Source: an uncultured Actinomycetota bacterium
Lineage (GTDB): Bacteria; Actinomycetota; Actinomycetes; Mycobacteriales; Mycobacteriaceae
NCBI GenBank assembly: GCA_963757215.1
Contig: CAVWQH010000001.1
Location: forward strand, 26,977-90,976
Length of the DNA: 64,000 nucleotides
Direction of reading: 5' to 3'
The position numbers were made by a program, and so were the translations under genes. The stretch's first letter is position 1. Each line of letters starts with the position of its first letter. Shown one piece after another: positions 3,013-47,848 of this stretch. The notes beneath the pieces are model-generated. The model saw only the letters and a list, made by a program, of their open reading frames with translations. It had not been told where the DNA came from and made no database searches.

Positions 3013-4266
3013 GTGAATCGGGGTTCGATGGCGTCGTGGAAAGCCCGTGGGCTTGGTTTTGGATTGTTGGCGGGCGTATCGATGCTCAATGCGGCGCCGG
3101 CGTTTGCGGAACCCACACCTGATCCGACCGATTACACCGCGCTGATTCTGGGGCATGCGTTCCTGTCGCAGCCGGACGCCACGTACATGCAGGAAGTGAT
3201 TGACACCTACGTCACTCCGCAGTACACCGTCGTCGGCGACCCGGTCAGCGTGTACACGCCGGAAACGGATTACGCGTCGGGTCTCACCCAGGGGATCACC
3301 GACCTGGACAACCAGCTCCAACCGCTACTCGCGGCGAACCCTGACGCCCACCTCGTCATCGCCGGCTACTCGATGAGCACGGCGATCCAGACCCAGGAGA
3401 TGATCAACCTCGCCAACACAGTCGGGGGCGCTCCAGACACCAGCGGTCTGAAATTCGTGCTGGCCGAAGATCTGCAAAACCCCAACGGCGGATATTTCAC
3501 CCGATTCCCGGATATGTTCGCCGCGACCCTGCCGGCCACTCCGGCTGATACCCCCTACGACACCACCATCTACACCATCGAATACAGCGGGGCGTCCGAC
3601 TTCCCGCAGTATTACGGGAACCTCTACGCGGACATGAACGCGGCCAACGGCTACGTTGACCTGCACCCCTACCTGTTGCCAGGCTGGCCGGCCTATTTCG
3701 ACCCGTCGACGGTCGCTAATGCGGTGCAGGAGAACGTATCTGAGAGCTACAAGGGCAACACCGACTATTACCTCATCCCGACGCAGAACCTGCCGATGCT
3801 CGACGGGCTGCACGCGATCGGCGGGAACTCGTCGTTCGTCGACATGATGCAGCCCGATATGCGGGTGCTGGTCGACTTGGGTTACAACTGGACCGGCAAC
3901 GCGGACGTCACCACAGCCGCTACGTTGTCCAATCCCGACATCGATTTCACCGCGGTCAACGACTACCTGGAAGCCGGCGCCAACCAGGGGATGCTCGCCA
4001 GTCTTGTCGACCTCGGGTTGCTGCCGCAGTCGGATTTGGCGGATATCGCGAACCTCTACCCCTACGTGCCCGATGTCTCGGGGCTGATGGATGGCGCTCT
4101 GAGCAACAACGATGCGGCGGCACTAGATGCGTCAATGTCGGCGACCGCGCTGACCGACGCGTTGTCAACGTCGACGAACCCGCTGATCGCGGAATTCGGT
4201 CAGTTCATTCCCGCCATGACAGCGAATTTGGCCGACTACTTCCAAAGCCTGGCAAGCGGTCTCTGA
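3013..4266 (+). CDS. secreted PE-PPE-domain (cutinase-like, Chp-type) serine hydrolase/acyltransferase
   Basis: N-terminal signal peptide (GLLAGVSMLNAAPAFA/EP). The central region reads like the PE-PPE C-terminal hydrolase domain, with HLVIAGYSMSTAIQ as the GxSxG-like nucleophile elbow (last Gly is Ser). It has an acidic Ser/Ala/Leu-rich C-terminal tail. Confidence 0.7.
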   Translation: MNRGSMASWKARGLGFGLLAGVSMLNAAPAFAEPTPDPTDYTALILGHAFLSQPDATYMQEVIDTYVTPQYTVVGDPVSVYTPETDYASGLTQGITDLDNQLQPLLAANPDAHLVIAGYSMSTAIQTQEMINLANTVGGAPDTSGLKFVLAEDLQNPNGGYFTRFPDMFAATLPATPADTPYDTTIYTIEYSGASDFPQYYGNLYADMNAANGYVDLHPYLLPGWPAYFDPSTVANAVQENVSESYKGNTDYYLIPTQNLPMLDGLHAIGGNSSFVDMMQPDMRVLVDLGYNWTGNADVTTAATLSNPDIDFTAVNDYLEAGANQGMLASLVDLGLLPQSDLADIANLYPYVPDVSGLMDGALSNNDAAALDASMSATALTDALSTSTNPLIAEFGQFIPAMTANLADYFQSLASGL

Positions 4267-4310: not shown

Positions 4311-5138
4311 ATGAATTCCAGCCCGGTTGCGCTGATCACCGGCGCGACGAGCGGTATCGGCGAGGCGACCGCCTACCGGTTGCAGAAGCAGGGCTACACG
4401 GTGTTTGCGGCGGGCCGCAATCCGGAAGCGCTGGATACCTTGCGGGCCAACGGCTTGCAGGCACGCTCGCTCGATGTCACCGACGAAGCCGCGGTCGCTC
4501 ACCTCGTTGACGAGATCAACGCCGACTACGGCGGTGTCGACGTACTCGTCAACAGCGCCGGTTATCCGCTCCCCCGCCCGCTCGAGCAGGTCGAGCTGAG
4601 CGAACTGCGGCACCTGTTCGACACCAATGTGGTTGCCACACTTCAGTTGTCGCAGGCTGTGCTGCCGGGTATGCGTGCACGTGGCCACGGCCGGATCATC
4701 ACGATCGGCAGCACCGGTGGACGCTTCACCAGCCCCGGCGCCGGCGCCTACCACACCGTGAAGTACGCGGTCGAGGCGTTGTCGTTGTCGTTGGGCGCCG
4801 AGGTGGCGCAGTTCGGTGTCCGAGTCGTGTTGATCGACCCCACTGGTGTGCGAACGCCGTTCGTGGCCAAGCAATTCGAGGACGTGCACTCCTACCCCGA
4901 TGACGACCCCTACGGTCGCTTCAAGGTTCGCTACTCAGAGACGACCCGCCGGCTGGCCAGCACGCCCGGTGCGACGGTCGACGCCGACACGGTGGCCCGC
5001 GCGGTGGTGCGGGTGGTCAAGACCCGAAACCCCAAGCCCCGCTACATCGTCGGCGCCTCGGGGAAAGCCTCCGTGTGGGCCCGAGCGCTGCTGAGCGATC
5101 GGATGTGGGACCGCGTGATGACGACGGGGTTGCGCTAG
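4311..5138 (+). CDS. short-chain dehydrogenase/reductase (SDR)
   Basis: TGATSGIGEA Rossmann motif, NSAG, and YHTVK (YxxxK). Confidence 0.9.
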   Translation: MNSSPVALITGATSGIGEATAYRLQKQGYTVFAAGRNPEALDTLRANGLQARSLDVTDEAAVAHLVDEINADYGGVDVLVNSAGYPLPRPLEQVELSELRHLFDTNVVATLQLSQAVLPGMRARGHGRIITIGSTGGRFTSPGAGAYHTVKYAVEALSLSLGAEVAQFGVRVVLIDPTGVRTPFVAKQFEDVHSYPDDDPYGRFKVRYSETTRRLASTPGATVDADTVARAVVRVVKTRNPKPRYIVGASGKASVWARALLSDRMWDRVMTTGLR

Positions 5139-5158: not shown

Positions 5159-6907
5159 CTAGAACATGCTCGGTACCAAAGTGGCCATGTCCGTGGCCAA
5201 TTGGGGACCGAAGTCCGCGGCGAATTGCGTGCTGAACTCGGCGAGCAACTGACTCAGCGCATCCGAGCCCACACCGGTGCCGAGGCCGGCCAGCAGTGAG
5301 CTCAGGTCCGTAGAGAGAGCGCTCGGATCGAAGCCGCCCAGAACCGAGCTCAGATCCGCAGCGACACCGGTGGGATCGACCGATCCGGCCGCCGTCGAGG
5401 CCGCGCCTTCGCCGAGCAGTGAAGCGAGCGCCGACGAGTCGCCCGGGAAGGAGAAGTCGGTGAACAGAGTCTGCAGGTCGGTCGCCAGGGTGGGGTCTGT
5501 GTTACCGGTGAAGCTGTCTTGGAAGAACTTCGCCAAGTCGTCCCCGACCAGCAGGTAGTTGTACCCGCCATATTCGCCGACGAGCTGACCCGACGAGTTG
5601 AGCAGGTCCGGATTCGTGGGATCCGACAAGTACGCCAGGTAGTTCGGGTCGGTCAGAATGCCCGCGTTGGTGTACAGCGCCGGCAGCTCGGGGTTGATGT
5701 TGCCCAGCGCGGTGTCGACCTGAGCGAGTTCGGTCGGGCTGAAGTTGTACGACCCCGTTTGCAAAAGCGCTACCGCGTCGTTGATTTGGGGAATCGTCGC
5801 GTTGTTCTGGGCGGCGAAATCGCCGACGTAGGCAGCCAGCGACGTGTTGGACGGATCCAACGCCAGAACGTCTTTCAGCAGATCCACTTGCGTTGTGCCC
5901 GCCGGGATGTCGCACAGTGCCGGGCAGGCCGGGCTTCCCGCAACGAAGGGGTCGAACGCGACAATCGAACCTGCAGTGAGGTTTTGGAGCGATTGGCCGA
6001 TGTCCGTCAGGCTCGGAAGATCGATACCGGTGCCGCTGATACCACCGGTCGGGGCTTGGAACAGGCTGTTGTAGAAGTTCTCGAACGGCCCAAACAGGTT
6101 GAGCTTGAACGTGTCTCCGGCCCACGGCATGTATTCACCGGTACCGGTGCCGTTGATGCCGGTGGTGCCGTCGAAGCCCAAGGACCCGGTCACCCCGGGA
6201 GCGTTAGGTCCCACGCCGGGGCTCGGGTCGATCAGCCCCGGGTCGGTCGCCGGGGTGAAGGTGAAGTTGCCGCTGGTCAGGTTCGACAGCGGCACCTGCA
6301 ACCAGTTGGAGAACAGCGAGAACGGCGCACCGTTCGCGTCGGTGCCGTGCCCGCTGAGTGCCTCGAGGAAGCCGATGTCCCGGTCCAGACCGGTGTTGCC
6401 GGTGATGACCTCCGGCGGCGTCATCGGCGCGCAGGCTTCCGCGTCGCAAGAGGCGCTGGTGGGAAGTTCGGCCGCGGCCAGCAATCCGATCTGCTGAGCC
6501 AGGCCGGCCGTGCCGTTCGCATCAGCGATCGGGTTGATCTCGGCTTGGCCGAGCCCGGAGATCTGCGGCGCGAACGGAAGCAACGTGTCGAGAATGCCCA
6601 TGTAGTGGCCCAGGTCGCCGGGGTCGGTGCCCCAGATGTTCGTGGCGCTGGGCACCCACCAGTCCCCGCTGAACAGCAGCGAGTTTCCGAGGACGTCGAT
6701 GCCCGCGAACTCGTTGTAGGGAATGTTGACGACGTCGTCGAACAGGTTGATCGGCACGTTGAGGATGTCACTGGCATCGACCAGACGCGTGTCGACCTTC
6801 CGGACGGGAATGTGCGAGGCTTTCGGCGCGGCCGGGGACAGCACGACAGCACTGGTCGCTGCCACTGCGGCGGCAGCTAGGACGTACGCGCGCGAAGCGG
6901 CCTGCAC
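5159..6907 (-). CDS. exported acidic protein, uncharacterised paralog family, copy A
   Basis: Long minus-strand ORF. I place the start at GTG 6907 (VQAASRAYVLAAAAV), which aligns with the N-termini of the four paralogs and follows an AGGGGGG RBS. It has a hydrophobic N-terminal signal/anchor and shares the family motifs: NIPYNE, GDWWVPS, WGTDPGD, SCDAEACAPMTPP, MPWAGD..KLNLFGPFENFYNSL, GSPACPALCDIP, ALLQTGSYNF, INPELPALYTNAGI.TDPNYL and YGGYN. Confidence 0.8.
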   Translation of the reverse strand: MQAASRAYVLAAAAVAATSAVVLSPAAPKASHIPVRKVDTRLVDASDILNVPINLFDDVVNIPYNEFAGIDVLGNSLLFSGDWWVPSATNIWGTDPGDLGHYMGILDTLLPFAPQISGLGQAEINPIADANGTAGLAQQIGLLAAAELPTSASCDAEACAPMTPPEVITGNTGLDRDIGFLEALSGHGTDANGAPFSLFSNWLQVPLSNLTSGNFTFTPATDPGLIDPSPGVGPNAPGVTGSLGFDGTTGINGTGTGEYMPWAGDTFKLNLFGPFENFYNSLFQAPTGGISGTGIDLPSLTDIGQSLQNLTAGSIVAFDPFVAGSPACPALCDIPAGTTQVDLLKDVLALDPSNTSLAAYVGDFAAQNNATIPQINDAVALLQTGSYNFSPTELAQVDTALGNINPELPALYTNAGILTDPNYLAYLSDPTNPDLLNSSGQLVGEYGGYNYLLVGDDLAKFFQDSFTGNTDPTLATDLQTLFTDFSFPGDSSALASLLGEGAASTAAGSVDPTGVAADLSSVLGGFDPSALSTDLSSLLAGLGTGVGSDALSQLLAEFSTQFAADFGPQLATDMATLVPSMF

Positions 6908-7144
6908 GGCGGCCCCCCCTTCACAGACTTCGGCTCGGTGCCCGCTGAACATACAGTGAAAGGAAGTTGAGATTCCAAGCCACCCATAGGTGTGGCCTGT
7001 GGATCGGTTGAGAAATCGTCAGCCTGGCAGGTGCCGGGGAGAATGCTGTGTGTTTGGTGTCGATGTCCTGCGGTCGTGCACCCTGCGTCGAATCATGTTG
7101 GGCCGAATTCGACTGGCACGGAACAACTCTTGGTAGTTCGGCGC

Positions 7145-8755
7145 TCAGAACATGCTGAGCACGGACTGCGGCACGAAGGACGCGAGGTCCGCGGTGATCT
7201 GCGCCGAGATCTCCGCGAACGCCGCGGACAGCGCGTCCGCGCCGACCGTGCCGCCCAAGCTCCCCAGCAGGGTGCTCAGGTCAGTCGTGAATTGAGTGAT
7301 CGCAGAACTACCGGCCGCCACATCGGCGGCCGCCCCGAGTGGCGACCCCAGGACGTTCTGCGACGCCGGGTCGAAGAAGTAGTAGAGCGTGTTGATGTTC
7401 AGCAGCGGGGTCAGATCCCACTTGTCGTTGGTGAGCAACGTAAACCAGTCGTTGATCACCAGATTGGAATTCAAGCCGCCGTACACCGGGTCGAGGCTGG
7501 ATGTCGCGCCACTCGCGAACTCCAGGTAGTTGGGGTCGGTCACGATCCCGTCGTTGGTGAACAGATATGGCAGTTCGGGGTTGATCTGGGCCAGCAGGGC
7601 ATCGTAGTTCAGCAGGTTGTCGTACGACAGGTTGAACTGTCCGGTTTGCAGCAGTGCGACGGCAGCCTCCTGCTGGAAGGCGGTCGCGTTGTTGTTGGCG
7701 CCGTCGAGCCAGGCTTGGATCGTGGTGTTGGTCGGATCCCACGCGAGGATGTCCTGCACAAATGCGGTCTGCGTCTCGTCGAACGGTATGTCGCACAGCG
7801 CCGGACAGGCAGGACTGCCCATGACGAACGGGTCGAAGGCAATGACCGATCCGGCGGCGAAGTTCTGGAACGCCTGACCGATCTCGGTGATCGTGGGGAC
7901 CTCGATCGGGTTGCTCGCAGGGTCGGCAAGCAGGCTGTTCCAGAAGTTCTCGAACGGTCCAAGCAGGTTCAGCTTGAAAGTTATGCCGTCCCAAGGCATG
8001 TAGCCCGAGGTGTCCGCGGTGGGATCGGTGGTGCCGAAGAAGCCGTAGCCACTCGGCACTTCCCCGGCAGCGCCGGTACCGGGGCTGGGGTCGACGATGC
8101 CGGTATCGCTGGGACCGAAGGTGTACGTGCCGTTGGCCAGCTCGGAGAACTGAACCTGGAACCAGTTCGAGAAAAGACCGAACGGCTGGTTGTGCGCGTC
8201 GGTGGCCTGGCCGAAAAATGCCTGAAGATAGCCGATGTCCCGGTCGACGCCCGTGCTCCCGGTGATGATGTTCGGTGGCGTCATCGGGTAGCAGGTCTCG
8301 GCGTCGCAGGAAGCGCTGACCGGAAGTTCGGCGGCCGCGAAAAGACCGATCTGTTGAGCCAAGCCCGCCAGGCCGGCCGCATCCGCCGTAGGGTCGATCT
8401 CCGGCTGGTCGAGACCCGATATCGCCGAGAACGGAATCAACACGTCGAGCAGACCCATGTAGTGACCGAGGTCGCCGGGATCGGTTCCCCACAGGTTCAC
8501 CGCGCTGGGAACCCACCAGTCACCGCTGAAGAACAGCGAATTGGACAGCACGTCGAAACCCTGGACCTCGTTGAACGGGATGTTCAAGATGTCGTTGAAC
8601 AGGTTGACCGGGATGTCGGTGTAGTCGACGAGCCGAGTGTCGATGCTGCTGACGGGGAGATGAGGCGTCCGCGCGACGGTCGGCGTAACGATGACGGCAC
8701 TGGTGGCTGCGAGCGCCGCCGCCGCCAGAACGTACCCGCGGTTAGCAGCTTTCAC
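7145..8755 (-). CDS. exported acidic protein, uncharacterised paralog family, copy B
   Basis: GTG start at 8755 preceded by GAAGAGGGGA. It carries the same motif set as copy A. Only 4 Lys/Arg occur after the signal region. It ends in ...SVLSMF. Confidence 0.8.
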   Translation of the reverse strand: MKAANRGYVLAAAALAATSAVIVTPTVARTPHLPVSSIDTRLVDYTDIPVNLFNDILNIPFNEVQGFDVLSNSLFFSGDWWVPSAVNLWGTDPGDLGHYMGLLDVLIPFSAISGLDQPEIDPTADAAGLAGLAQQIGLFAAAELPVSASCDAETCYPMTPPNIITGSTGVDRDIGYLQAFFGQATDAHNQPFGLFSNWFQVQFSELANGTYTFGPSDTGIVDPSPGTGAAGEVPSGYGFFGTTDPTADTSGYMPWDGITFKLNLLGPFENFWNSLLADPASNPIEVPTITEIGQAFQNFAAGSVIAFDPFVMGSPACPALCDIPFDETQTAFVQDILAWDPTNTTIQAWLDGANNNATAFQQEAAVALLQTGQFNLSYDNLLNYDALLAQINPELPYLFTNDGIVTDPNYLEFASGATSSLDPVYGGLNSNLVINDWFTLLTNDKWDLTPLLNINTLYYFFDPASQNVLGSPLGAAADVAAGSSAITQFTTDLSTLLGSLGGTVGADALSAAFAEISAQITADLASFVPQSVLSMF

Positions 8756-8873
8756 GGCAGTCCCCTCTTCTCACCTGCCCCGGATCAGCGCTGAGCCTAA
8801 CTGAACGGAACCTGAGATTCAGGCGAACTGCTGACGCGTGCCCAATAAATTCTCGCCCGGCGGGTGGGGAAGA

Positions 8874-8908
8874 AATCGGACCCCCGGCGGTGGGCTGGGG
8901 GTCCGATT
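8874..8908 (-). terminator. putative intrinsic terminator downstream of paralog copy C
   Basis: Perfect 12-bp inverted repeat aatcggaccccc / gggggtccgatt (8874-8885 and 8897-8908) with an 11-nt loop. On the minus-strand RNA it is followed by UUUCUUCCCC, and it starts 17 nt after the copy C stop. Confidence 0.5.
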
Positions 8909-8924
8909 GCCTGTGGTGTACGGC

Positions 8925-10634
8925 CTAGAACATGCTGAGCACGGACTGCGGAACGAAGGACGCGAGGTCGGCACTGATCTGCGCCGAGATCTCGGCAAAA
9001 GCAGCGCTCAACGCGTCCGCTCCTGCGGTGCCGCCCAGGCCGGCGAGGATCGAGCTCAGGTCGGTCGAGAAGCTCGGGTCCAGCGCGCTGGGGTCGATAG
9101 CCGCACCCGGGGTGGCGGCCGCAGCTGCGACGGTCCCGCCGTCGAGCACGGCCTGCAGGGCCGCCGGATCGCCCGCGAAGGTGAAATCATTCAGCAGCAG
9201 CTGGAGGTCCGCCGACAATGTCGGGTCCACCGGGTTGCTGCCGGCCGCGTCCAACACCTTCAGGAAGTCTGCGCCTTCGAGCCAAGGGTTGTAACCGCCA
9301 TACTCGCCCACCAACGGTGTGGTGGTTGAGGGATCCGACACATAAGACAGGTAGTTGGGGTCGGTGATGATCCCGGCGTTGGTATACAGCTCCGGCAGTT
9401 CGGGGTTGATTCTGCCCAGCGCCGCGTCGACGTCCGCCAACTGCTCCGGGCTGAAATTGTAGGAGCCGGTCTGCAGCAGCGCGATGGAGTTGTTGATCTG
9501 ATCCACCGTCGGCTCGTTGACCAACTGTGGGTTTGTCGCGTAGTCCGTCACCCAGGTCGAGAGCACGGTGTTGCTCGGGTCCGCTTTCGAGATCGCCTCG
9601 ACCAGAGCCGGGATCTGGTATTGCGCTGGTATGTCGCATTCCGCCGGGCAGGCCGGGCTACCCGCGGTGTAGGGGTCGAAGTCGATGATGAAGCCGGCCA
9701 TCAAGTTCTCGAAGGTGTGCGAGACCCCGGCAGCCGTCAGGTCCTGAACTCCCGTCGCCGCCGTCGGATCCTGCGTCAAGCTGTCGTAGAGCGTCTGGAA
9801 CGGCTGCAGCAGGTTGAGCTGGAAGTTGACCCCGTCCCAGGGCATCGCGTTGTCCGCCCCGGTGGTGCCGCCCTCGAACGGGTTGCCGCTGCTGCCCCAC
9901 CCGAGCAGCTGGGCCCACTGGTCATTGACCGGGCCGCCGGGGTTGAGGATGCCGGTGTCGTAGCCGGGCTCGCCGGTCGTACCACCGGCGGGGTTGGCCT
10001 GGAAAAGATAGCCGTTGAACAGGTTCTGCAGCGGCACCTGGAAGAAGTTGGTGAACAGCCCGTTGGGGTCACCGTTCGCGTCCGTGGCGTGGCCCGTTAG
10101 GGCCGCGAGGAATCCGAGGTCGCGGTCATACCCCGTGTTGCCGGTGAGAACCTCCGGTGGGGTCATCGGGGCGCAAGAGATGGCGTCGCAGGACGAACTC
10201 ACCGGGAGTTCAGCCGCCAGTAGACCGGCAAACTCATAGTTCAGGCCGGGCTCGTAGACGCCCTGAGCGTTGGTGAATCCCTCGGTGAACGCCGAGAACG
10301 GAATGAAGTTGTCGATCAGTGCGATGTGGGTCGGGTCACCAGGGTCAATACCCCACAGGTTCGTCGAGCTGGGGACCCACCAGGTTCCGGTGAACAGGAA
10401 CGAGTTCGCGACTGTGGCCAGACCGCCGCCGTCGACCTCGTTGTAAGGAATGTTCAGGATGTCGTTGAACAGGTTCGTCGGAATATTGCCGAAGTCGCCG
10501 GCGTCGACCAATTTGGTCTCCATGCTGCGAACCGACAACGGGACCTGGTGCGCCAGAACGGGTGTGGCGATGACAGCACCGGTCGCGACCAGTGCCGCTG
10601 CGGCCAGGACATTCGGACGTGAAACAGCCACCAT
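8925..10634 (-). CDS. exported acidic protein, uncharacterised paralog family, copy C
   Basis: 569-aa ORF with the same motif set. The last 34 aa are nearly identical to copy B (GADALSAAFAEISAQI[ST]ADLASFVPQSVLSMF). Confidence 0.8.
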   Translation of the reverse strand: MVAVSRPNVLAAAALVATGAVIATPVLAHQVPLSVRSMETKLVDAGDFGNIPTNLFNDILNIPYNEVDGGGLATVANSFLFTGTWWVPSSTNLWGIDPGDPTHIALIDNFIPFSAFTEGFTNAQGVYEPGLNYEFAGLLAAELPVSSSCDAISCAPMTPPEVLTGNTGYDRDLGFLAALTGHATDANGDPNGLFTNFFQVPLQNLFNGYLFQANPAGGTTGEPGYDTGILNPGGPVNDQWAQLLGWGSSGNPFEGGTTGADNAMPWDGVNFQLNLLQPFQTLYDSLTQDPTAATGVQDLTAAGVSHTFENLMAGFIIDFDPYTAGSPACPAECDIPAQYQIPALVEAISKADPSNTVLSTWVTDYATNPQLVNEPTVDQINNSIALLQTGSYNFSPEQLADVDAALGRINPELPELYTNAGIITDPNYLSYVSDPSTTTPLVGEYGGYNPWLEGADFLKVLDAAGSNPVDPTLSADLQLLLNDFTFAGDPAALQAVLDGGTVAAAAATPGAAIDPSALDPSFSTDLSSILAGLGGTAGADALSAAFAEISAQISADLASFVPQSVLSMF

Positions 10635-10993
10635 GGCTCCCCCTTACACATGCTCGACTAGCTCAATCCGAACTGAACTTACACTAAGAATTTCTAAGTT
10701 GTTCCGAGATTCGTACAAATTCGTTCGCGATATTCGGTGACCCCGATCACATTTATTAGTCGGGTGTTTAATAAGGGCGTTCGAGTCCAATAGATTGGAC
10801 AAAATGGCTAAAGCCGTAAATCATTGTTATTGCGGGTAAGTTAGACGGACGTCCCAATTCTGCGGCGTTGCCTCGTGTCGCCCAAACAGCGAAACCCATT
10901 GCCGCTCAACTCATCAGCGTGACCTACACCGGGCCGCTCGGACGCCGCCGGCCGGGTCGTCGATCGGCGAATTGCGATGGCCGGTTCGACGCT

Positions 10994-12706
10994 TTAGAAC
11001 GCGGTCAGAGCTGTCGCCGCCAAATCAGGCACCCACGCCGCCGTCAGCTCTTCCAGCAGGTTGGCGAACTCCGCCGACATTGCGGCGGGATCGAAACCGC
11101 CAAATAATGCGTCGAGGTCGAGCGAGCCTGGGTCGAATTCACCAAACAATGCACTCACGTCGAACGACGACGGGTCGAATCCGCCTAATAGCGCAGTCAG
11201 CTCGAACGACGACGCGTCGAAGCCGAAAACCTCGGTCAGATCCGTCGTCAACTCGGCGGGGTCGAATCCGCCCACCAGATCTACGGCGGTGGACGCACCG
11301 GGCTCCGCCGCCGTCGACGACAGCGGGAAGAACAAGGTTTCCAGCGTGTTGATGTTGAGCAGCTGTTCGTAGTTCGTCTCGTAATTGCCCAGCGCCAGCA
11401 GGTCGTTCCAGACCAGCGCCGGGTTGTAGCCGCCGTATAGACCTTCGAGGGGCTCCGCGGGGTCCAGCCCGCCGTTGTCCGGCAAGAGGAACTGCAGGTA
11501 TTCGGGGTCGGTCACGATGCCGGCGTTGGTGAACAGCGCGGGCAATCCCTCGTTGATGCCGGCCAGTGCGTCGTTGTAGTTGGCCAGCTGTTCCGGCGTC
11601 AGGTTGTACATGCCGGTCTGGAGCAGCGCGACCGCGTAGTTGATCTGCTCCTGTGTCGCGTTGTTGTTCGGGTACAGCGCGTCCTCGGCGAAACCGGCCA
11701 GCCAGGCCTGGATCATTGGGTTGGAGTCGTCGGGGTCCAACGCATCCACCAATTCGTAGGTGGACCAACCCTCGGGAAGTTCGCACACCCCCGGGCAGGC
11801 CGGGCTGCCGGGCGTATAGGGGTTGAACGCCACGATCAGCGACGCGGCGATGGATTGCAGCGATTGACCGAATTCGCCCAGGGTCGGAATGTTGATGTCG
11901 GTCCCGGGGAGATCGCCGTCGGTTCCCGGGTCTTGCAACAGGGACTCCCAGTAATTCTGGAACGGCTGGAAAAGGTTCAGCACAAAGGTGTGGCCGTTCC
12001 ACGGCATCGCGTCGTCGTCGCCGATCGTGGCGCCGAGGAAGGGATTGTCGCTGCCGAAGAAACCGAATGCGGGGTCGTTGGTGGCTGGACCGCTGGGGTT
12101 GTAGGCGTCGTCGAAGGTGTAGCCGTTGATCAGGTTCTGGAGCGGCACCTGAAACCAGTTCTGGAAGAGCCCGAAGTTCTCCCCGTTGCCCTGGGCCGTC
12201 AACGCGTTGATGTAACCGATGAGCCGGTCCCACTGGGTGCTGCCGGTGATGACGTCCGCCGGCGTCATCGGGTAGCAGGTCTCGGCGTCACAGGAGCCGT
12301 CGACCGGGAGTTGCGCGGCCAGGAAGCCGGCGAGCTGGTATTGCAAACCGCCGATGCCCTGATTGAAATCCGGAAAGGGCGCGAACAAGTTGGTCAGCAG
12401 GGCGACCTTGGTGGGGTCGCCGGTATCGATGCCCCACAGGTTCGTCGAGCTGGGCACCCACCAGTTGCCCCCGAGGAAGTTGGACCCGGCCAGCGAGTTG
12501 AGCGCTTGCACCTCGTTGTACGGAATGTTCGCAAAATCGGTGAGCAGGTTCATCGGGATGTTGAACAGCGACTCATCCACCAACCGGGTTTCCATGCTGA
12601 GCGTCGGCAGATGAATTGCCCTGTGCGCCATCGGCGTAACAGTGACAAGGCTCGTCGCCGCCAGCACCGCACCGGCGATGGCATATGGACGCGCAGCAAT
12701 CAGCAT
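10994..12706 (-). CDS. exported acidic protein, uncharacterised paralog family, copy D
   Basis: 570-aa ORF with the same motif set (SCDAETCYPMTP, GSPACPGVCELP). The C-terminus is built from 14-aa FDP repeats and ends in ...ALTAF. Confidence 0.8.
   Translation of the reverse strand: MLIAARPYAIAGAVLAATSLVTVTPMAHRAIHLPTLSMETRLVDESLFNIPMNLLTDFANIPYNEVQALNSLAGSNFLGGNWWVPSSTNLWGIDTGDPTKVALLTNLFAPFPDFNQGIGGLQYQLAGFLAAQLPVDGSCDAETCYPMTPADVITGSTQWDRLIGYINALTAQGNGENFGLFQNWFQVPLQNLINGYTFDDAYNPSGPATNDPAFGFFGSDNPFLGATIGDDDAMPWNGHTFVLNLFQPFQNYWESLLQDPGTDGDLPGTDINIPTLGEFGQSLQSIAASLIVAFNPYTPGSPACPGVCELPEGWSTYELVDALDPDDSNPMIQAWLAGFAEDALYPNNNATQEQINYAVALLQTGMYNLTPEQLANYNDALAGINEGLPALFTNAGIVTDPEYLQFLLPDNGGLDPAEPLEGLYGGYNPALVWNDLLALGNYETNYEQLLNINTLETLFFPLSSTAAEPGASTAVDLVGGFDPAELTTDLTEVFGFDASSFELTALLGGFDPSSFDVSALFGEFDPGSLDLDALFGGFDPAAMSAEFANLLEELTAAWVPDLAATALTAF
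11088..11300 (-). repeat. in-frame 42-nt (14-aa) tandem repeat, about 5 units, in the 3' part of paralog copy D
   Basis: Units start at about 11088, 11130, 11172, 11214 and 11257 (gggtcgaa.c.cc.aa.a..gc on the plus strand). They encode GGFDPxx[FL]xxxALF-type units. Confidence 0.6.
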
Positions 12707-12894
12707 GGCGCACTTCCCCTTTGATCGAGACAGCTGAATGGCACCTGAAGCTAAACTCAGAAAGCCTCAGCTGTCGCCATCGAAAGGGCGCTTCTTTACA
12801 ACCTCATATCAATCTGGCCAAACTCATATTCAAAAGGCGGGTCAAATGGGAACGCCGCATTCGCCTTTTATGTGGTGACGTGATAACGGGCGGA

Positions 12895-14418
12895 TCAGAA
12901 CAAATTCGCCGCAATACTCGTCAGATCCGGCGCCAGGTTTGCTCCGAATAGCGCGGCCAGGTCCGCCGATAATGCGCTGGGATCAAGCGCGCTGACGTCG
13001 AACATCTGACTGACGTCGGCCGTCGCCGCGCTGCCTCCGAAGATCTGCAAGAGGTCGGGCACGATCAACTGGGGATCCAATCCGCCGAACTCTGCCAACG
13101 GAGGGTCCGCCACCACCCCGGGCGACACAGCAAGATAGCCGGGATCGGTCAACAAGCCGGCATTGATGGCGAGATTCGGCAGCGTGGGATTGATCTCGGC
13201 GAGTGAGTCGATGATGCTGGTTTCCTGGTCCGGGGTGAACGTGAACAAACCGGTGTCCAGCAAACCCACGGTGTAATCGATGTCCGTCTGGGTCGGGATG
13301 TTCGCATATCCGCCGGCGACGGCGGCCAGCCACTCGTTGATGATGGGATTGCCGCCCGGCGTCAACGAATTGATGTCTTGCACGATCGGGAGGGTGACAC
13401 CGAGCGGGCCTTCCGAGCCGAAAGCCTGGCAGTCCCCGGGGCAAACCGGGCTTCCCGGCTCGAACGGGTTGAAGGTCACAACAAACGCCGCGGCATCGGC
13501 TTGCAGTGCCGAGAAGAAGTCGTTGAACGTCAAGGACTCGATGCCGGTACCGAACAGACCGCCGGTCGACGGTGTCTCCAGCAAACTGTTGTAAAAGTTC
13601 TGGAAGGGCTGCAGAAGATCGAACGTGTAGGTGTGACCGGCCCACGGCACTTCGGTGGCATTCGGGTCGAACAATCCCGTCGCCGGATCGTACGCCGGTG
13701 CTCCGGTCGCCGGATCGACGGTGCCGCCGAGGAAGAAGTTTGGGTTGCCGTTCTCGAAGCCGAAGCCGGAGTACACCGGTCCGGCAGGGTCGACGCTGCC
13801 GTCAGCGGCGGGATCGAAGGTGTACCCGGACAACAGACTGTCCGGACCGGTGACGGGAACGGCGAAGAAGTGTCGAAACAGCCCGAAATCAGGGTCGACC
13901 AGCGCCTTGGCGAAGCCGATGTCGCGGTCGATCCCCGTGATCCCGGTGATGACGTCCGGCGGGACGATCGGATAGCACGTCGTCACGGCGCACGAAGCGC
14001 TGATCGGCAACTCCGACGCCAAGAGACCGGTGAGTTGGTAGTCCAGGCCGCCGAGACCGCCGTCGAACGCTGGGAACGGCGCGATCAACGAGTCGATCGC
14101 CGCCACGTGCCCCGGGTCCCCGGGGTCGACCCCGAAGATGTTGGCGGCGGAAACGACAAAGATGTTGTCGTTGAAGAACAGCGAGTCAGCGGCGGTATCG
14201 AGGCCCTGAACCTCATTGGCCGGGATGTTGACGATGTCGTAGAACAGGTTCACCGGGATGTTGAGCACTGAGCCGTCGGCGTCGACGAGGCTGGTCTCGG
14301 CGCTTACCGCGGGAACCTGCGCGGCCCGCGGCGGGATGTGGGCGACTGCGACAGCGGCAGCACCTGCCGCGGCGAGCATCGCGCCTGTCAAGGCAAGTGA
14401 GCGTGACGTGGTCTGCAT
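12895..14418 (-). CDS. exported acidic protein, uncharacterised paralog family, copy E (most divergent)
   Basis: 507-aa ORF that retains NIPANE, DPGDPGH, SASCAVTTCYPIVPP, VPWAGH..TFDLLQPFQNFYNSL, GSPVCPGDCQ and INPTLPNLAINAGLLTDPGYL. It ends in ...AANLF. Confidence 0.75.
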   Translation of the reverse strand: MQTTSRSLALTGAMLAAAGAAAVAVAHIPPRAAQVPAVSAETSLVDADGSVLNIPVNLFYDIVNIPANEVQGLDTAADSLFFNDNIFVVSAANIFGVDPGDPGHVAAIDSLIAPFPAFDGGLGGLDYQLTGLLASELPISASCAVTTCYPIVPPDVITGITGIDRDIGFAKALVDPDFGLFRHFFAVPVTGPDSLLSGYTFDPAADGSVDPAGPVYSGFGFENGNPNFFLGGTVDPATGAPAYDPATGLFDPNATEVPWAGHTYTFDLLQPFQNFYNSLLETPSTGGLFGTGIESLTFNDFFSALQADAAAFVVTFNPFEPGSPVCPGDCQAFGSEGPLGVTLPIVQDINSLTPGGNPIINEWLAAVAGGYANIPTQTDIDYTVGLLDTGLFTFTPDQETSIIDSLAEINPTLPNLAINAGLLTDPGYLAVSPGVVADPPLAEFGGLDPQLIVPDLLQIFGGSAATADVSQMFDVSALDPSALSADLAALFGANLAPDLTSIAANLF

Positions 14419-14580: not shown

Positions 14581-15309
14581 CTAATTGACCAACCAGGCGC
14601 GGTTGCCGTAGGTGTCGAGGTGCGCCACCTGTTCGACGGCCACCCGGGTCGTCGGCCCATAGCGCCCACGCGGCCATCCGAGCGCCACCACGCAGCACGG
14701 CGTCACCGAGCGCGGGAGGCCGAGAATTTTGCGGGCCCGGCTCACTCCCCACAGCGGCAAGGTGATCAGCGATGCGCCCAGGCCCATGCTGCGCGCCGCC
14801 AACAAGAGGTTCTGCACGCTCGGGTAGATCGACCCCCAATACCCCGACACGGCGGCATGAGGCATCAGTGAATAGGGTGCGCGGCCCTCGCGGACCGTCA
14901 GCCGCAGGCATGCCACCACCAAAACCGGGATCTCGGTGAAGTGGTCGACCTGCCACTGCGCGGCACGGATGACCTTGGCCAGCGACGGATCGTGGTCCCC
15001 GGCGCTGCTGAGCAGTCCGCCGTAGGAGAACTTCCAGCCCTTGCGGTAGCGTCCCGCGAGCTTCTTGATCACGCGCCGGTCCTTGACGACGATGAACTCC
15101 CAGTTCTGACCGTTGGCGCCGGTCGGTGCGCGCAGTGCCAACTCGATGCACTTCAGCACGACCGCGTCATCGACCGGCTCGGCGTACACGCGGCGCACCG
15201 CCCGCTGGGTCAGCATCGCGTCCTGCAGCGCCATGTTCAGCCCGGCCAGCGCGTCGGCGGTGGACGGCGCTACCCGGAATGCGTCGGCGTAGGGCGAATC
15301 GTCGGTCAT
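14581..15309 (-). CDS. nitroreductase-family flavoprotein
   Basis: Nitroreductase-like core (LRAPTGANGQNWEFIVV). I prefer ATG 15309 (MTDDSPY), which sits 1 nt after the stop of the upstream gene, over the longer listed ORF. Confidence 0.75.
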   Translation of the reverse strand: MTDDSPYADAFRVAPSTADALAGLNMALQDAMLTQRAVRRVYAEPVDDAVVLKCIELALRAPTGANGQNWEFIVVKDRRVIKKLAGRYRKGWKFSYGGLLSSAGDHDPSLAKVIRAAQWQVDHFTEIPVLVVACLRLTVREGRAPYSLMPHAAVSGYWGSIYPSVQNLLLAARSMGLGASLITLPLWGVSRARKILGLPRSVTPCCVVALGWPRGRYGPTTRVAVEQVAHLDTYGNRAWLVN

Positions 15310-15310
15310 G

Positions 15311-15811
15311 TCAGGCGTTTTCGGTGACCCAGCGCGCCGTGAAGTCCTGGACGGCCGGTATCCCGTTGGCGAATTCACGCGCGATAAAGCTCTCGACGGT
15401 CCCGCCGACCAGCGGAACCTTGAACTCCACCTGACCGTTCAGTGTCAGCCGCGACCCGTCCGCGGTCGGCGTGACGGAGGCATCGGCTGAGCCGGATCCC
15501 GGCGCTCCGGTGACCGCGACGGCAATCTCCCCACGCAGCCCATCGCCCGACGGCATCCAGGTCTCGGTGCTCTTGACCTTGATGTCGTGGCGGTAGAACT
15601 TGGAGACGATGCCGGGCAGCAGATCACGGCCGACATCCTGCGTGATGGTGACCCGCACGGTCCGGGCGTCGTCGACGACCAGTGATTCCAGCGTGGTTCC
15701 ACCGCTCATGGTCTCGAGCCGGGCCAGCCAGTACTCCTCGGCGCTGAACGCGGCGTGAACCTGGTCGACGGTGGCGGGCGAGGAGACCGAAACATCGAAC
15801 GGACGCGGCAT
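15311..15811 (-). CDS. DUF2505 / SRPBCC-like small protein
   Basis: 166-aa ORF whose length and sequence pattern (VDQVHAAF..EEYW..R) read like mycobacterial DUF2505 proteins. It is tightly packed in the operon. Confidence 0.6.
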   Translation of the reverse strand: MPRPFDVSVSSPATVDQVHAAFSAEEYWLARLETMSGGTTLESLVVDDARTVRVTITQDVGRDLLPGIVSKFYRHDIKVKSTETWMPSGDGLRGEIAVAVTGAPGSGSADASVTPTADGSRLTLNGQVEFKVPLVGGTVESFIAREFANGIPAVQDFTARWVTENA

Positions 15812-15818: not shown

Positions 15819-16517
15819 CTAAACCGGTTCCTGGCCCGGCATTGCCGAGCTCTTGGCCAACAACCGGTCCGCCAGGCGGCCCGCGAATACGCGCGTCTGC
15901 TCCAGCTGTTCGGGTTGCACGTTGGTCGGCGGCAGCTTCACGCCCATCGACCGCTTCTTGTACTCCCCCGTGCCGAGATAGCTGGTCAGCGCCAGCATCG
16001 AGCGCAGGTTGTCGCCGGGATAGGTGAAGTGAATTTCGTCGACGTAGCGGCCGCCCTGTTCCTCGGCGAGCTCACGCACCCCTTCGAGGTTCGCCTGCCA
16101 GAACGTGCGGCAGACGACGAATACCGCAAATGGCTTGCCGGACAACAACTTATGCGCCTCGTCCGACTTGAGGAAGGAGCGCAGCGGCATGCTGACGTTG
16201 TCCCACCAGGTCGGCGATCCGATCAGGATCAGGTCGTAGTCGCCGTCGCGCACGGTGTCCGGGGTTTCGATCTCACCTGTCTCGTTGCGTTTCTGGGCGC
16301 CCAGCACGCTGAGCATGTCGGGCCATACCCGCTGCATCGGGAAGTGGGAAAACTTCTCGGAGTATTTCGGGTCGGTGAACGCGATCCGGGCTTCGCTCAC
16401 CTCGCACCCTCGATCGCGGAAGACCTCGGCCGCGGTGGTGAGCACCTTCTGCGCCTGCCCGGTGTACGAGTAGTACAGCAGCAGGACCCGGGGCGGGCGT
16501 GCGGTCGTATCCATCAT
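15819..16517 (-). CDS. flavodoxin-like fold NAD(P)H-dependent oxidoreductase
   Basis: RVLLLYYSYTGQ ... LILIGSPTWW flavodoxin-like motifs. The start is taken as ATG 16517 (MMDTTARPP) rather than the longer listed ORF. Confidence 0.65.
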   Translation of the reverse strand: MMDTTARPPRVLLLYYSYTGQAQKVLTTAAEVFRDRGCEVSEARIAFTDPKYSEKFSHFPMQRVWPDMLSVLGAQKRNETGEIETPDTVRDGDYDLILIGSPTWWDNVSMPLRSFLKSDEAHKLLSGKPFAVFVVCRTFWQANLEGVRELAEEQGGRYVDEIHFTYPGDNLRSMLALTSYLGTGEYKKRSMGVKLPPTNVQPEQLEQTRVFAGRLADRLLAKSSAMPGQEPV

Positions 16518-16560
16518 GGCTTCCTCCGTCTCCAAATGTCGCACATTAGGCTGTGGCGTC

Positions 16561-17391
16561 GTGACCGACAAAGTTTCCATCGACCTCAGCGGTCCGTCGC
16601 AGACGATGCTGACCACCTTGTACTGCAAGGCGCTCGACGCTGACTGGGACCGGCCGATACTGGGCGACAAGTACGCCAAGGCGGCGGTGGCCCGGATCGA
16701 CTACAACTGGGACGAACTCAAGGTCTCCGACCGCTGGACGCCGCTGGTGACGGTGCGGACCGCCCAGTTCGACGTGTGGACTCGCGAGTTTTTGGCCGCC
16801 CACCCGGATGCCACCGTCATCCACGTGGGCTGCGGCCTGGACAGCCGGGTGTTCCGGCTGGATCCCGGGCCGGGCGTCGAATGGTACGACGTCGACTTTC
16901 CCGCGGTGATCTCGTTGCGCGAGAAGGTCTTTCCGAGCCGGCCGAACTACCACCTGGTTGGCACTCCGGCGACCGATCCGTCGTGGCTGGATGCAATCCC
17001 GGCCGACCGTCCGACGTTGTTTCTGGCCGAAGGCATCAGCATGTACCTTGCCGAGGACGACGGCGTCGCTCTGCTGCAACACGTCATCGACCGGTTCAAG
17101 ACCGGCGAGATCAACATCGACTACTACAGCCGGCTCGTTGTGCGGTCGCAGAAAACGCATCGCCTGCAACGGCAGTCCGGTTCGACGCTGCACTGGGCGG
17201 TCAACAAACCGTCCGATGTTCTCGATCGCCTGTCCGGGGCCCGATTGGTCGACGGGGTGACGTTCTTCGACGCCAGCACATTCGGTCGCGCCTCGGCAGT
17301 CTTCCGGTTGATGCGGCAGTTGGTCCGGCCGCTGCCGCCGCTGCGCCGAACCTTCCAGTACCACCGCTACGCCTACGGCCCGGTCAGCTGA
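16561..17391 (+). CDS. class I SAM-dependent O-methyltransferase (TcmP / leucine carboxyl methyltransferase-like)
   Basis: [18 protein letters not shown]-binding motif and a typical N-terminus ([14 protein letters not shown]). The start is either GTG 16561 or ATG 16516. Confidence 0.8.
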
Positions 17392-18637
17392 CGCCGGCGT
17401 GCTGCTGAGCGACCTCGGCGAGCAATGCGCGGATGGCGTCGATCGACTTCTCCGGTTCCGGTCCGTGCGAGTGGTATTCGACGTTGAGCTGTTCGGCGTA
17501 GATCTGGGTGAAGTAGATCTCGATGCCGGCGCTGACCTGAAAGTAGAGTTCGCCGTGCGTCGTCGTGACCTCGACACCCTCGGGTGTGCGCACCGGCGGC
17601 ACCAATCCGTTGTCGGACAACAACACCACGTCGGGCATGCCGGGCGCATTGCCGACATACTGCGGGCTGAAGTGCAGGCGTGACTGCTGGATGACGCCCT
17701 CGTCCAGGTCACCCTTGAACGTCGCCGCGATGTCGCGGGCCAACTCGACCACCGTGGTCTTCTGGTTGATCTCCGCGAGGTAGGTGCCCAGCCCGACCGG
17801 GTTGGTACACCCGGTCGCCGACACCGGCGGCGACAGGAAATAACGCAGGTCGACGGTGTAGATGAAGGGCACCGGAATGTTCAGCCGGCCGCGCACCTGC
17901 CATTCCCCGATCAGGATCGCGGCCGACAACACGGAGTGCAGACCCAGCTTCTCGGCGCGGCAGAGTTCGACGATCGCGTGTGTCTGGGCTTCACTGAGCC
18001 GGCACGATGCCATCGGAACCCGCACGGGCGACGGGGGTTTCGCCCCGGTGTCGCCGCGCCGGGACGGCGGGAGGTCGTAGGCGAACAGCGCCGGCATGAA
18101 CCGTTCGATGCCCGAACGCGATCCTTTCTGGATACCTCGATCGGCGAGCACGGTCTCGATCGACTCCGGCGCGGGCTGCGCGATCACCGGAGCGGTCTTC
18201 CCTGCTGTGACCAGATCGGTGTAGAACGACAGCAATTCCTCGATCAGGCCGTACATGTGGTGACCGTCGGCCAGCGCGTGGTGGACGTAGAGCGTGGGGT
18301 GCGCCTGCCCGTCGCGGATGAACAGCCGGAGGTGGACCAGCGACTCGCCCTGGTCGAAATGCGGTGGCGGATTGTCGGTCTGCGACGGGTCGACCTCGAT
18401 CACCTCGAGCCCCGAGTGCATGAGGTCGTCGGCGACCAGGTCGTGACGGCCGTCGGCACCGCGTTCCAGGCGTGCAGTGAGTACCGGGTGCGCCTCGAGC
18501 AGAAGGTCGAAGGCGTCCGTCAGCGCGTCGACATCGATCGGACCTTCCAGGTGTGCGGCGAGGCCGACGAAGTTGTGCGTCTCAGCGAGCATCTCCTCAC
18601 TGAGCGCCAGCTTGCGGATGACCGACGATGGAAACAC
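17384..18637 (-). CDS. PapA5-like polyketide-associated acyltransferase (stand-alone condensation-domain protein)
   Basis: 417 aa with a canonical HHxxxDG motif ([13 protein letters not shown], codons 18263-18283). The N-terminus [15 protein letters not shown] and later blocks (GVIQQS.LHF) match my memory of M. tuberculosis PapA5. Confidence 0.9.
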
Positions 18638-18659: not shown

Positions 18660-20050
18660 TTACGACAAGTCCACCAGTTCCATGTCGTCGCTGCCGGAAT
18701 CGATCTCGTCCGCCGCGAGAGCTTCCCGGATCAGATCCAGCAAGTCTCGCGAGAACCCGTCGGCCAGCGACTGCACGCGGGCCGCGTCGACCCGCCGGGT
18801 GTCATGCCACCAATCCAGGTGCAACACCCCGCCCGAGCGGAACACTCGTAGCTCGATCGCGTGACCGAGACCCGGAATCGCCTCGCGCACCGGCAAAGCG
18901 GTGTCCGAGTCGAACTGGACGGCGACGTCGTCGCCCAGCGCGGGCAACTCGGGGATGGTGCCGATGTAGTTGAAGAAGATCTCGGCCGGCCGGGACACCC
19001 CGAGCGCACGCGCGGTGGGCGCGTAGAGGTAACGCAGCAACCCGTAGCCGATTCCGTAGTGGGGCACCGCAGCCAGCGCGGTGTGCACCTCGTCCAGTGC
19101 CTGCTTGGCGTTGGCGCCGTTGGCGTTCGCGATGGCGCAGTTGAGCGCGACCGGGTACACGGTGCTGAACCAGCCGACCGTGCGGCGAAGGTCGACGTCG
19201 GGCTTGAGCACCGACCGCCCGTCGCCATTGACGTCGACGGCGACCGAACCTTCGCCGACAGCGGCCGCGATGGTCTGGCCGAGGGCGGCCAGCAGCATTT
19301 CGTCAATCGGCACCCGGAGTCGCCGTCGTGCGTCGTCGATCTCGGTGGTTTCCGCGACGGTCAACGTCGTCGACAGTCGGGACAGATCGGCCACCCGCGG
19401 CGCCTCGTGCACGCCGGCACCCGCCACCCGCAGGTTCGCGCCGGCCGCCGTCCGCAGCCAGAAGTCGCGGCTGTCGACGACCGCCGGGTGGACGGCCAGC
19501 GCCGCGCAACGCTGTGACCACTCGGCCCACGGCACGGAGATCGGCTGCAGCGCAATCTCTTCCCCGGCCAGCCGCTGTCCGAATGCGGTGAAGATGTCGG
19601 TCAGCAGGATGTCGCGGGAGGCGTTGTCGGCCGCGATGGCCGGCACGCTGATCGCGAGGTGGCACGAACCACCCTCCGCGCCAGTGACATACGTGGCGAC
19701 CAACGGGTGGCTGGACAGATCCTGTGAGCTGATCTGTTCCTGAAGGATGGCCAGCACCGCCTCGCGCTCCTGCGGGCTGCCCGCCGCGACATCGCCGGGC
19801 AGTGCTGCGGTGGCCAACTCGACGAGCTCTTCCGGCCCGCCGATGACCTGCTCCCAGGTGCCCGCCCGTTCGACGAGGCGAAGACGCAGCGCCTCGTGTT
19901 GATTGACGATCGCGGTGAGCACGGCGCGGATGTCGTCGGTCTGCACGTCCGGCCGCAGCCGCAGGATCAGCGGCACCCGCCACTGGCCGTGCTCGGCGAC
20001 CCCGTACTCGAGGAAGTACGAGATGTTCGGCGGGACAGGCGGATGCGTCA
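18660..20050 (-). other. C-terminal condensation-like domain of PKS5 with a non-canonical active-site motif
   Basis: The HHxxxDG position reads SVPAIAADNAS (19617-19646). Confidence 0.7.
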
Positions 20051-28483: not shown

Positions 28484-28499
28484 CAGAAGATTCTTCCCA

Positions 28500-33794: not shown

Positions 33795-33799
33795 CCCGC

Positions 33800-38571
<4,772 letters not shown>

Positions 38572-38572
<1 letters not shown>

Positions 38573-47830: not shown

Positions 47831-47848
47831 TCGGATCGCGGGTTCGGA

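Follow-up and report, generated by a model that had tools for sequence, protein, structure and literature searches.

A tandem array of five genes from an undescribed, likely exported protein family belongs to a phthiocerol-type polyketide-lipid cluster in environmental Mycobacteriaceae

What is the role of five consecutive homologous genes that lie beside a lipid-biosynthesis locus and encode proteins unlike any named family? The question is raised by a 64,000-nucleotide (nt) stretch of DNA from an uncultured member of the Actinomycetota (GTDB family Mycobacteriaceae; GenBank assembly GCA_963757215.1, contig CAVWQH010000001.1, positions 26,977 to 90,976 of the forward strand), referred to here as the window, whose own numbering is used for all coordinates. 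The genes occupy positions 5159-14418 on the minus strand and are labelled copies A to E. We report that they are paralogs of one undescribed family, that the family maps to one type of gene cluster as a dedicated accessory gene, and that its members may handle the cluster's lipid outside the cytoplasm.

An initial annotation, made from the sequence alone, had described five homologous minus-strand genes of 582, 536, 569, 570 and 507 amino acids (aa), and open reading frames (ORFs) of these lengths are present at the expected positions. Aligned along their whole length with MAFFT, the five proteins share 41.6-57.1% pairwise identity over 442-547 aligned residues; orthologs and paralogs of the array proteins score E ≤ 1e-138, far beyond chance. 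They are real paralogs of one undescribed protein family. Copy A (5159..6907) comprises a predicted signal peptide or anchor, a globular domain of ~430 aa and an acidic tail free of lysine and arginine (K/R) that ends PSMF. Its longest ORF runs from 5159 to 6952, to an ATG at 6952 (597 aa), and we placed the start at the GTG at 6907 (582 aa), guided by the alignment to copies B to E and by the G-rich Shine-Dalgarno sequence that immediately precedes it. The remaining copies are B (7145..8755, tail ending LSMF), C (8925..10634), D (10994..12706, with three FDP..L..DL..LF repeats in a tail ending LTAF) and E (12895..14418), the last being the most divergent, with the shortest tail, ending ANLF. 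All five ORFs are taken as real genes on the strength of hundreds of homologs and of purifying selection; the opposite-strand and overlapping ORFs in this region are the usual artefacts of high-GC DNA.

The shared motif blocks listed in the initial annotation are present, although they are not strictly invariant. The first block occurs as VDTRLVD, IDTRLVD, METKLVD, METRLVD and AETSLVD, copy E departs from the WWVPS block (IFVVS) and from YGGYN (FGGLD), and copy B has YGGLN in place of YGGYN. The acidic, K/R-poor character that was noted at the outset is pronounced: each copy has 5-10 Lys plus Arg against 55-69 Asp plus Glu, for a net charge of about -50, and merely 2-7 K/R residues fall after residue 45.

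Gene context ties the family to a single kind of locus. In 34/34 related genome loci, the family gene or genes sit in the same slot, between a nitroreductase-family gene (in the window, 14581..15378, minus strand) and a short-chain dehydrogenase (SDR) gene (4311..5138, plus strand), beside genes for a PapA5-like acyltransferase and an LCM-family O-methyltransferase. The same cluster surrounds the family in 9/9 distant contexts, the most divergent members (partial profile matches) included. These contexts are loci L035-L044, counted as nine places, with L035-L037 carrying the same protein; Mycolicibacterium sediminis, Mycobacterium sp. ACS1612 and activated sludge are among their sources, and together with the related loci they make 43. 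Wherever the flank is long enough, an LCM gene lies within ~5 kb of a family gene. Such conserved placement in a pps-papA5 cluster across distant genomes is what marks an accessory gene, and we conclude that this one family maps to one gene cluster, as a dedicated accessory gene of a phthiocerol-type polyketide-lipid cluster. The location beside a lipid island had been noticed before, and correctly so, but was understated given an association that holds strictly across the family, in 43/43 loci, and that extends to protein fusions.

The distant contexts differ in detail. In Mycolicibacterium sediminis (P0224, L038) the order is PpsE-like, DrrABC, PapA5, LCM, PE-PPE, ORF, DUF2505, nitroreductase, family gene, flavin monooxygenase (FMO), hydrolase, SDR, methyltransferase and cytochrome P450. 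GCA_014893035.1 (P0140, L042) is similar without the PE-PPE gene between LCM and ORF, and has a separate PE-PPE gene after the SDR, followed by methyltransferase, P450, FMO and SDR. The core order of L038 recurs in GCA_044223235.1 (P0213, L043), with no PE-PPE gene and with its end adjoining ileS, and the same genes occur in an ENA metagenome assembly (P0262, L044), with SDR and hydrolase before the family gene and, again, ileS at the end. Mycobacterium sp. ACS1612 (P0155, L039) has DUF2505, nitroreductase, SDR, hydrolase, FMO, MmpS, MmpL, methyltransferase, family gene, LCM, methyltransferase and P450; another ENA metagenome assembly (P0139, L040) has MmpS, MmpL, FMO, P450, methyltransferase, family gene and LCM; and a Logan assembly (P0135 and P0159, L041) has two tandem copies between nitroreductase and LCM.

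Three cluster members are variable, as DrrABC, MmpS/MmpL and a Chp-like PE-PPE gene are present in some genomes and absent from others, and an ortholog of the last adjoins the array in most related loci. Copy number and transporters sort with clade. Fast-grower loci have one or two copies, with DrrABC or MmpS/MmpL alongside; in their versions of the cluster DrrABC stands between PpsE and PapA5 (loci compared: L033, L038, L042-L044), the position that it has in M. tuberculosis. Within the multi-copy clade, whose members are K/R-free and end in Phe (the window, L001-L032 and L034), PpsE is followed directly by PapA5, in the window as elsewhere, and neither DrrABC nor MmpS/MmpL was found within the examined flanks of the loci or anywhere in the 64-kb window; in these genomes the transporters may simply be located elsewhere. 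Among mycobacteria from soil and sludge, clusters of the Pps/PapA5 type that carry a distinct set of tailoring genes are widespread.

A second link to the cluster comes from protein fusions. By Pfam scan and a jackhmmer screen of relatives, we found the family domain followed by a C-terminal PE-PPE domain within one protein in P0180 (980 aa), P0183 (928 aa) and P0175/P0272. The P0180 gene immediately follows mmpS-mmpL and is itself followed by an LCM gene and by another PE-PPE gene.

The array proteins are likely exported, as had been proposed, judging by an N-terminal hydrophobic segment and a pattern of paired cysteines. In all five copies one or two basic residues precede a 17-residue stretch with a mean Kyte-Doolittle hydropathy of 1.7-2.1 (median 2.06 for the N-terminal 17-mer over 274 relatives); all five have the short basic N-region and the hydrophobic segment of at least 15 residues that are typical of Sec export or a signal-anchor, and the N-terminus is predicted to be one or the other. 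The fast-grower subfamily often has a 30-70-residue Arg-rich segment ahead of this stretch, and in these relatives the extension fits a signal-anchor. All five copies keep the same four cysteines, arranged as C-x4-C and C-P-x2-C. Among 105 relatives, the pair at positions 149 and 154 (copy C numbering) is complete in 98, missing altogether in seven and represented by a single cysteine in none, while the pair at 329 and 333 is present in 105/105. This keep-or-lose pattern, characteristic of disulfide-bonded extracytoplasmic proteins, points to two local disulfides and hence to an extracytoplasmic domain, in line with the reading first given to these residues.

The family could not be assigned to any known one, which agrees with the initial annotation. 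No Pfam-A 2025 or NCBIfam 20.0 model matches any of the five copies at E up to 1, and scans of the five copies with 16 relatives returned noise only (PaREP1, HrpB1, Harpin, E ≥ 0.06). None of the 120+120+32 listed homologs has a precomputed Pfam assignment, sequence-profile searches of the PDB gave either 0 matches or 6 noise matches (e.g., gp41 mimetics, E ≥ 0.12), and a literature search on the family, also by accession numbers, found nothing. A HMMER search of 1.84 billion representative proteins returned 418 matches at E ≤ 0.001, with 419-464 homolog clusters across searches. Among the matches listed, those with a name all belong to Mycobacteriaceae: M. cookii, M. shimoidei, M. paraterrae, Mycolicibacter sinensis and Mycolicibacter minnesotensis, Mycolicibacterium sediminis, and Mycobacterium spp. 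JS623, ACS1612 and 1245111.1. The remaining members come mostly from soil, bog and sludge metagenomes, and the matches listed include no member from the M. tuberculosis complex, M. marinum or M. smegmatis.

UniRef gives several unfused members (P0018, P0050, P0339, P0373, P0224 and P0400) the name 'PE-PPE domain-containing protein'. Five UniRef-labelled unfused relatives had no Pfam PE-PPE match even at E up to 10, and we flag this automatic name as misleading; it is probably an annotation error derived from the rare fused relatives. The earlier statement that the family does not belong to PE, PPE or PE-PPE holds, both by the absence of Pfam matches and by profile comparison with hhalign. Homology to the neighbouring PE-PPE protein was rejected at a probability of 0.9% (70-sequence profile, 21 tail columns aligned) and homology to the PPE protein of the window at 0.2%.

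A first AlphaFold run with 70 close homologs reached a predicted local distance difference test score (pLDDT) of 61, and its Foldseek output, which was membrane-protein noise, was discarded. The run was repeated with a 105-sequence alignment that included the divergent fast-grower branch. Residues 29-470 of copy C were then modelled at a pLDDT of 90.2 and a predicted template modelling score (pTM) of 0.87, and all five models reached at least 87.7. The copy C model is mostly alpha-helical with few short strands. Taking E ≤ 0.001 or a template modelling (TM) score ≥ 0.5 as a match, Foldseek found none for it in the PDB (best E = 2.3, TM 0.08) or in BFVD (best E = 1.2). The predicted fold is apparently new, in the sense of having no match in PDB and BFVD, and the family, undescribed before, is without a known relative in sequence family or predicted fold.

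The protein consists of an N-terminal signal or anchor, a ~430-residue, mostly helical predicted domain with two short-range disulfides and, in this clade, an acidic tail. Six residues are invariant among 105 diverse members (N54, N92, G95, D100, C329 and C333), and others are nearly so, namely NIPxN...NIPxNE, W94-G-x-D97-P-x-D100, C149, C154, T164-G, D170, P265-W266, G325-S and N355. The core (roughly residues 45-335) can occur without the helical C-terminal subdomain that follows it at ~340-470. P0200 (696 aa, from a Logan assembly) has this core in tandem duplicate within one polypeptide; the second Cys pair is missing from this protein, and the first is spaced differently, as C-x6-C.

Two subfamilies can be told apart by their composition and ends. 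In the window type the domain contains 0-7 K/R, or as many as 11 in a few divergent sequences, and is followed by an acidic tail of ~20-135 residues with 0 or 1 K/R and repeats of DP..L..DL..L; the C-terminal residue is Phe in 204/225 members (SMF in 105, SLF in 37). The fast-grower subfamily has 4-19 K/R in the domain and a long Ser/Thr/Gly-rich tail commonly ending GG[KR]HRA[EK]. The two C-termini, -S-[ML]-F of the K/R-free members and GG[KR]HRA[EK] of the fast growers, are mutually exclusive, and either could be a sorting or recognition signal. Searched with a hidden Markov model of the tail, the ORFs of the window yielded the five copies only, with no match in the Chp-like neighbour.

The array is old and under purifying selection. 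In tblastn searches with the five copies, the 34 related genome loci proved to hold arrays of one to five or more copies, with the order E-D-C-(B)-A kept. One-to-one orthologs, 78-89% identical, exist for copies A, C, D and E; those of copy A are 81-89% identical in L001, L003, L004, L005, L012 and L016, while a close ortholog of copy B (86%) was found only in Mycobacterium sp. 1245111.1 (L016). For true orthologs, the ratio of nonsynonymous to synonymous substitution rates (dN/dS, Nei-Gojobori) is 0.13-0.19. For comparison, the neighbouring genes gave 0.03-0.05 (P450), 0.06-0.07 (PapA5), 0.10-0.14 (SDR), 0.13-0.18 (LCM) and 0.20-0.32 (Chp-like PE-PPE). No 30-codon window reaches 1, the maximum being 0.70 in the signal region of E. 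Constraint is strongest at residues 60-135, the WWVPS..N.WG.DPGD region (pN/pS 0.00-0.09), which points to a specific binding or active surface. Values of dN/dS >1 with dN >1 were ignored as artefacts of frameshifted tblastn segments in nanopore metagenome-assembled genomes (MAGs). In several nanopore-derived MAGs (L005, L009, L023, L024, L029, L030 and L034), family copies appear broken into two to four tblastn segments; these splits are probably frameshift errors and not pseudogenes.

The initial annotation had seen in the array a local expansion that could be under diversifying selection. Neither a recent expansion nor such selection is borne out, given gene-wide dN/dS of 0.13-0.19, copies that are only 60-83% identical in DNA within the window, and the ordered 1:1 orthologs of A, C, D and E. 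The DNA identities likewise give no support to a recent duplication or gene conversion; just B and C come somewhat closer to each other, at their 3' ends. These tail-coding ends (B, 7147-7291; C, 8927-9071) are 82% identical over 145 nt, and the two tails match almost completely at protein level, against only 50% identity for the whole proteins, a similarity that may be the trace of an old gene-conversion tract.

Traces of the duplication also appear upstream. Copies A to D share a block, YAGTKTAKSYTCAG, with a -10-like TANNNT hexamer, located on the minus strand ~40 nt before each start, at 6944..6958 for A, 8790-8803 for B, 10672-10686 for C and 12744-12758 for D; no such block precedes copy E, and a G-rich ribosome-binding site precedes all five. 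The similar blocks suggest separate predicted promoters for A to D, and the duplication unit seems probably to have included the promoter and 5' untranslated region, one per gene. Judged from sequence only, this proposal stands beside a sigma-70 and terminator scan of the array that gave no more matches than shuffled sequence.

What, then, do these proteins do? Our preferred reading, to which we give a probability of roughly 45%, is that the array family is an extracytoplasmic handler of the cluster's lipid, acting as partner of the Chp-like acyltransferase, in hand-over towards the mycomembrane, or in both. Located at the outer side of the plasma membrane or in the periplasm/mycomembrane space, the domain would handle the lipid made by the cluster. 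There it might bind substrate for the Chp-like PE-PPE acyltransferase (3013-4266) or serve it as a scaffold and, alternatively or also, hand the lipid over in the direction of the mycomembrane. In this clade, where three to five copies are kept in order and conserved separately, we would expect subfunctionalisation, with copies that may serve different lipid variants or form a hetero-oligomer, and not antigenic variation. Three considerations favour a lipid-handling role outside the cytoplasm: the fusions put the domain on the same side as a Chp-type domain; the family is the only apparently exported product of the cluster besides the transporters and the PE-PPE protein; and Chp1, Chp2 and the M. 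smegmatis protein 'PE' are acyltransferases that act on MmpL-exported glycolipids at or outside the membrane. For the partner role in particular, the Chp-like protein is encoded two genes from the array and shows the same extreme K/R depletion (2 Lys and 2 Arg against 36 Asp and 9 Glu in the 384 residues of its mature form). Since this neighbour is also so K/R-poor, the depletion may extend beyond the family to exported proteins of this organism in general, perhaps in connection with life in acidic soil or bog.

Several observations weigh against this reading. Fusion is rare, at 3 of ~150 listed representative clusters, and about a quarter of the loci (L028, L031-L034, L039-L041) have no PE-PPE gene within 10 kb, which makes an obligate PE-PPE partnership unlikely for the whole family. 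In addition, the invariant N54, N92 and D100 and the nearly invariant E66, D97 and D170 would fit an enzyme or metal site equally well. A bolder form of the proposal, which we regard as doubtful, is that the family founds a new fold and forms an unrecognised extracytoplasmic leg of phthiocerol-type lipid export or assembly in environmental mycobacteria, in which the three to five ordered paralogs of this clade, with their Phe-ending, K/R-free tails, would make up a hetero-oligomeric conduit or scaffold that carries the lipid to the mycomembrane and presents it to the Chp-like acyltransferase. It is motivated by the multi-copy clade, which lacks adjacent DrrABC or MmpS/MmpL.

In the main rival, the domain would have a catalytic activity of its own: it would be a new enzyme outside the cytoplasm, for example a hydrolase or transferase that modifies lipids or glycans, or a Ca2+-dependent enzyme, and would act on the cluster product or the envelope through invariant Asn, Asp and Glu residues. 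This view can draw on the set N50, N54, N61, E66, N92, D97, D100, D170 and N355, all invariant or nearly so and set in Pro/Gly-rich loops, on the very strong constraint at residues 60-135, and on a gene position among tailoring enzymes; both halves of the fusions, moreover, could be catalytic. Yet the family alignments contain no classical catalytic motif, as had been remarked from the five copies, and in particular no conserved Ser, His or Cys nucleophile motif or metal-binding His motif; the Pfam, NCBIfam and PDB searches turned up no similarity to any enzyme in sequence or fold; and three to five conserved paralogs per genome would be unusual for a single tailoring step. We consider a catalytic role unlikely, if still a serious contender.

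Two further explanations look past the cluster. A tandem multi-copy array of extremely acidic proteins with low-complexity tails, evolving faster than the adjacent core enzymes (81-89% amino-acid identity against 94-97% for PapA5 and P450), might be taken for surface-coat, adhesin-like or antigen-type structural proteins, locally expanded under diversifying selection. The dN/dS values, with no window reaching 1, the ancient copies whose order is kept across genomes, and the strict tie to one lipid cluster, which extends to single-copy fast-grower members and would be unexpected for a general surface protein, make this improbable. Still harder to sustain is the idea that the proteins are PE/PPE-like substrates of ESX (type VII) secretion, with a C-terminal ...S-M-F as secretion signal. 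The analogy is with CFP-10, which ends ...MGF and whose C-terminus is its secretion signal; the family's restriction to mycobacteria, its K/R-poor, Ala/Gly/Asn-rich composition and the terminal Phe of most window-type members would all suit it. However, the N-terminus is a predicted Sec-type hydrophobic segment and not a helical hairpin of the PE/PPE/WXG type, PE, PPE and WXG Pfam models give no match, the hhalign probability against the window's PPE protein is negligible, as reported above, the -S-[ML]-F terminus is wholly absent from the fast-grower subfamily, and the paired cysteines suggest oxidative folding after Sec export. We therefore rate ESX secretion as very improbable.

Extracytoplasmic lipid handling also sits well beside known systems, none of which the family duplicates. 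Like Chp1, Chp2 and 'PE' (PF08237), the array proteins have an N-terminal hydrophobic anchor or export segment and are encoded inside a PKS/PapA/MmpL-type lipid cluster; a PF08237 gene lies two genes away, and three relatives combine both domains in one polypeptide. Unlike them, the five copies have no PF08237 match at E up to 1, the family alignments have no GxSxG, and the model is mostly helical, in contrast to the alpha/beta-hydrolase fold. The closest functional analogy for the proposed role would be LppX (Rv2945c), a periplasmic lipoprotein with a small beta-rich lipid-binding fold that is needed to move phthiocerol dimycocerosate (DIM) to the mycomembrane. Both appear to be extracytoplasmic, apparently non-catalytic accessory proteins from a pps-papA5 type locus, but the array family has no lipobox Cys after the signal, no match to the LppX_LprAFG Pfam model, a predicted helical domain of ~430 residues and multiple copies. 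The PE and PPE families (PF00934, PF00823) share its restriction to mycobacteria, multi-copy occurrence, acidic, Lys-poor and Ala/Gly/Asn-rich composition and occasional position N-terminal to a PE-PPE domain, and differ in that the array family has a Sec-type hydrophobic N-terminus, paired Cys and no Pfam match. Sap and Gap, small polytopic membrane proteins that assist MmpL-dependent export of sulfolipid and glycopeptidolipid, are also cluster-specific accessory proteins without an enzymatic motif whose genes lie beside those for lipid synthesis and export; the array family, whose members combine one N-terminal hydrophobic segment with a large soluble domain, is set apart from them by description and by the lack of a Pfam match. 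At the level of the pathway, the family fits the known theme of accessory proteins in mycobacterial lipid clusters.

By sequence, the window holds a complete phthiocerol-type locus comprising TesA, FadD26, five Pps-like polyketide synthases (PKSs) and PapA5. Beyond the nitroreductase gene lie a DUF2505 (SRPBCC-like) gene (15311..15811, minus strand), which is a conserved cluster member; a flavodoxin-like ORF (15819-16679, minus); the LCM-family O-methyltransferase (16516..17391, plus); the PapA5-like acyltransferase (17384..18637, minus); the five Pps-like type I PKSs (18660..44058, minus), the last with the KS-AT-ACP-C architecture of PpsE; a FadD26-like fatty acyl-AMP ligase (44119..45903, minus); and a TesA-like thioesterase (46526-47275). 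The flavodoxin-like ORF, found between LCM and DUF2505 in every locus, has no Pfam match and resembles flavodoxin in sequence (LLLYYSYTGQ..., GSPTWW); its longest ORF here is 286 aa, against ~235 aa in relatives. On the SDR side of the array, the SDR at 4311..5138 forms the constant flank as the nitroreductase does on the other, and is followed by the Chp-like exported PE-PPE gene (3013..4266, plus strand), whose product has a predicted signal peptide, a GYSMS serine motif and a PF08237 match at 1.8e-42. Beyond it come a second SDR (2074-2913, minus; adh_short 1.5e-43), an alpha/beta hydrolase and, at the window edge, a P450 (44-1198). A plus-strand ORF at 2068-2871 that overlaps the second SDR is an artefact. 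In L038, L042 and L043, an FMO (Baeyer-Villiger type), a hydrolase and an SDR stand in a row, a triad that we take to resemble the M. tuberculosis mymA operon (Rv3083-Rv3085); in the counterpart in the window (1209-1994, 2074-2913 and 4311-5138) the FMO is missing. The G+C content falls to 0.60-0.62 at 10001-14000 (copies D and E) and at 46001-48000 (the TesA/PPE region), against 0.67-0.70 in the PKS genes.

The family's apparent absence from model and pathogenic species limits both its medical relevance and an interest for envelope biology that we would otherwise rate as moderate to high. The passage of DIM and other very hydrophobic polyketide lipids through the periplasm to the mycomembrane is poorly understood, and to our knowledge the accessory proteins recognised for such lipids are few: LppX, Sap, Gap and Chp1/2. 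Strict synteny, domain fusion and a confident structural model tie the family described here to the phthiocerol-type cluster and to a Chp-type acyltransferase, and make it a concrete candidate for a missing extracytoplasmic step.

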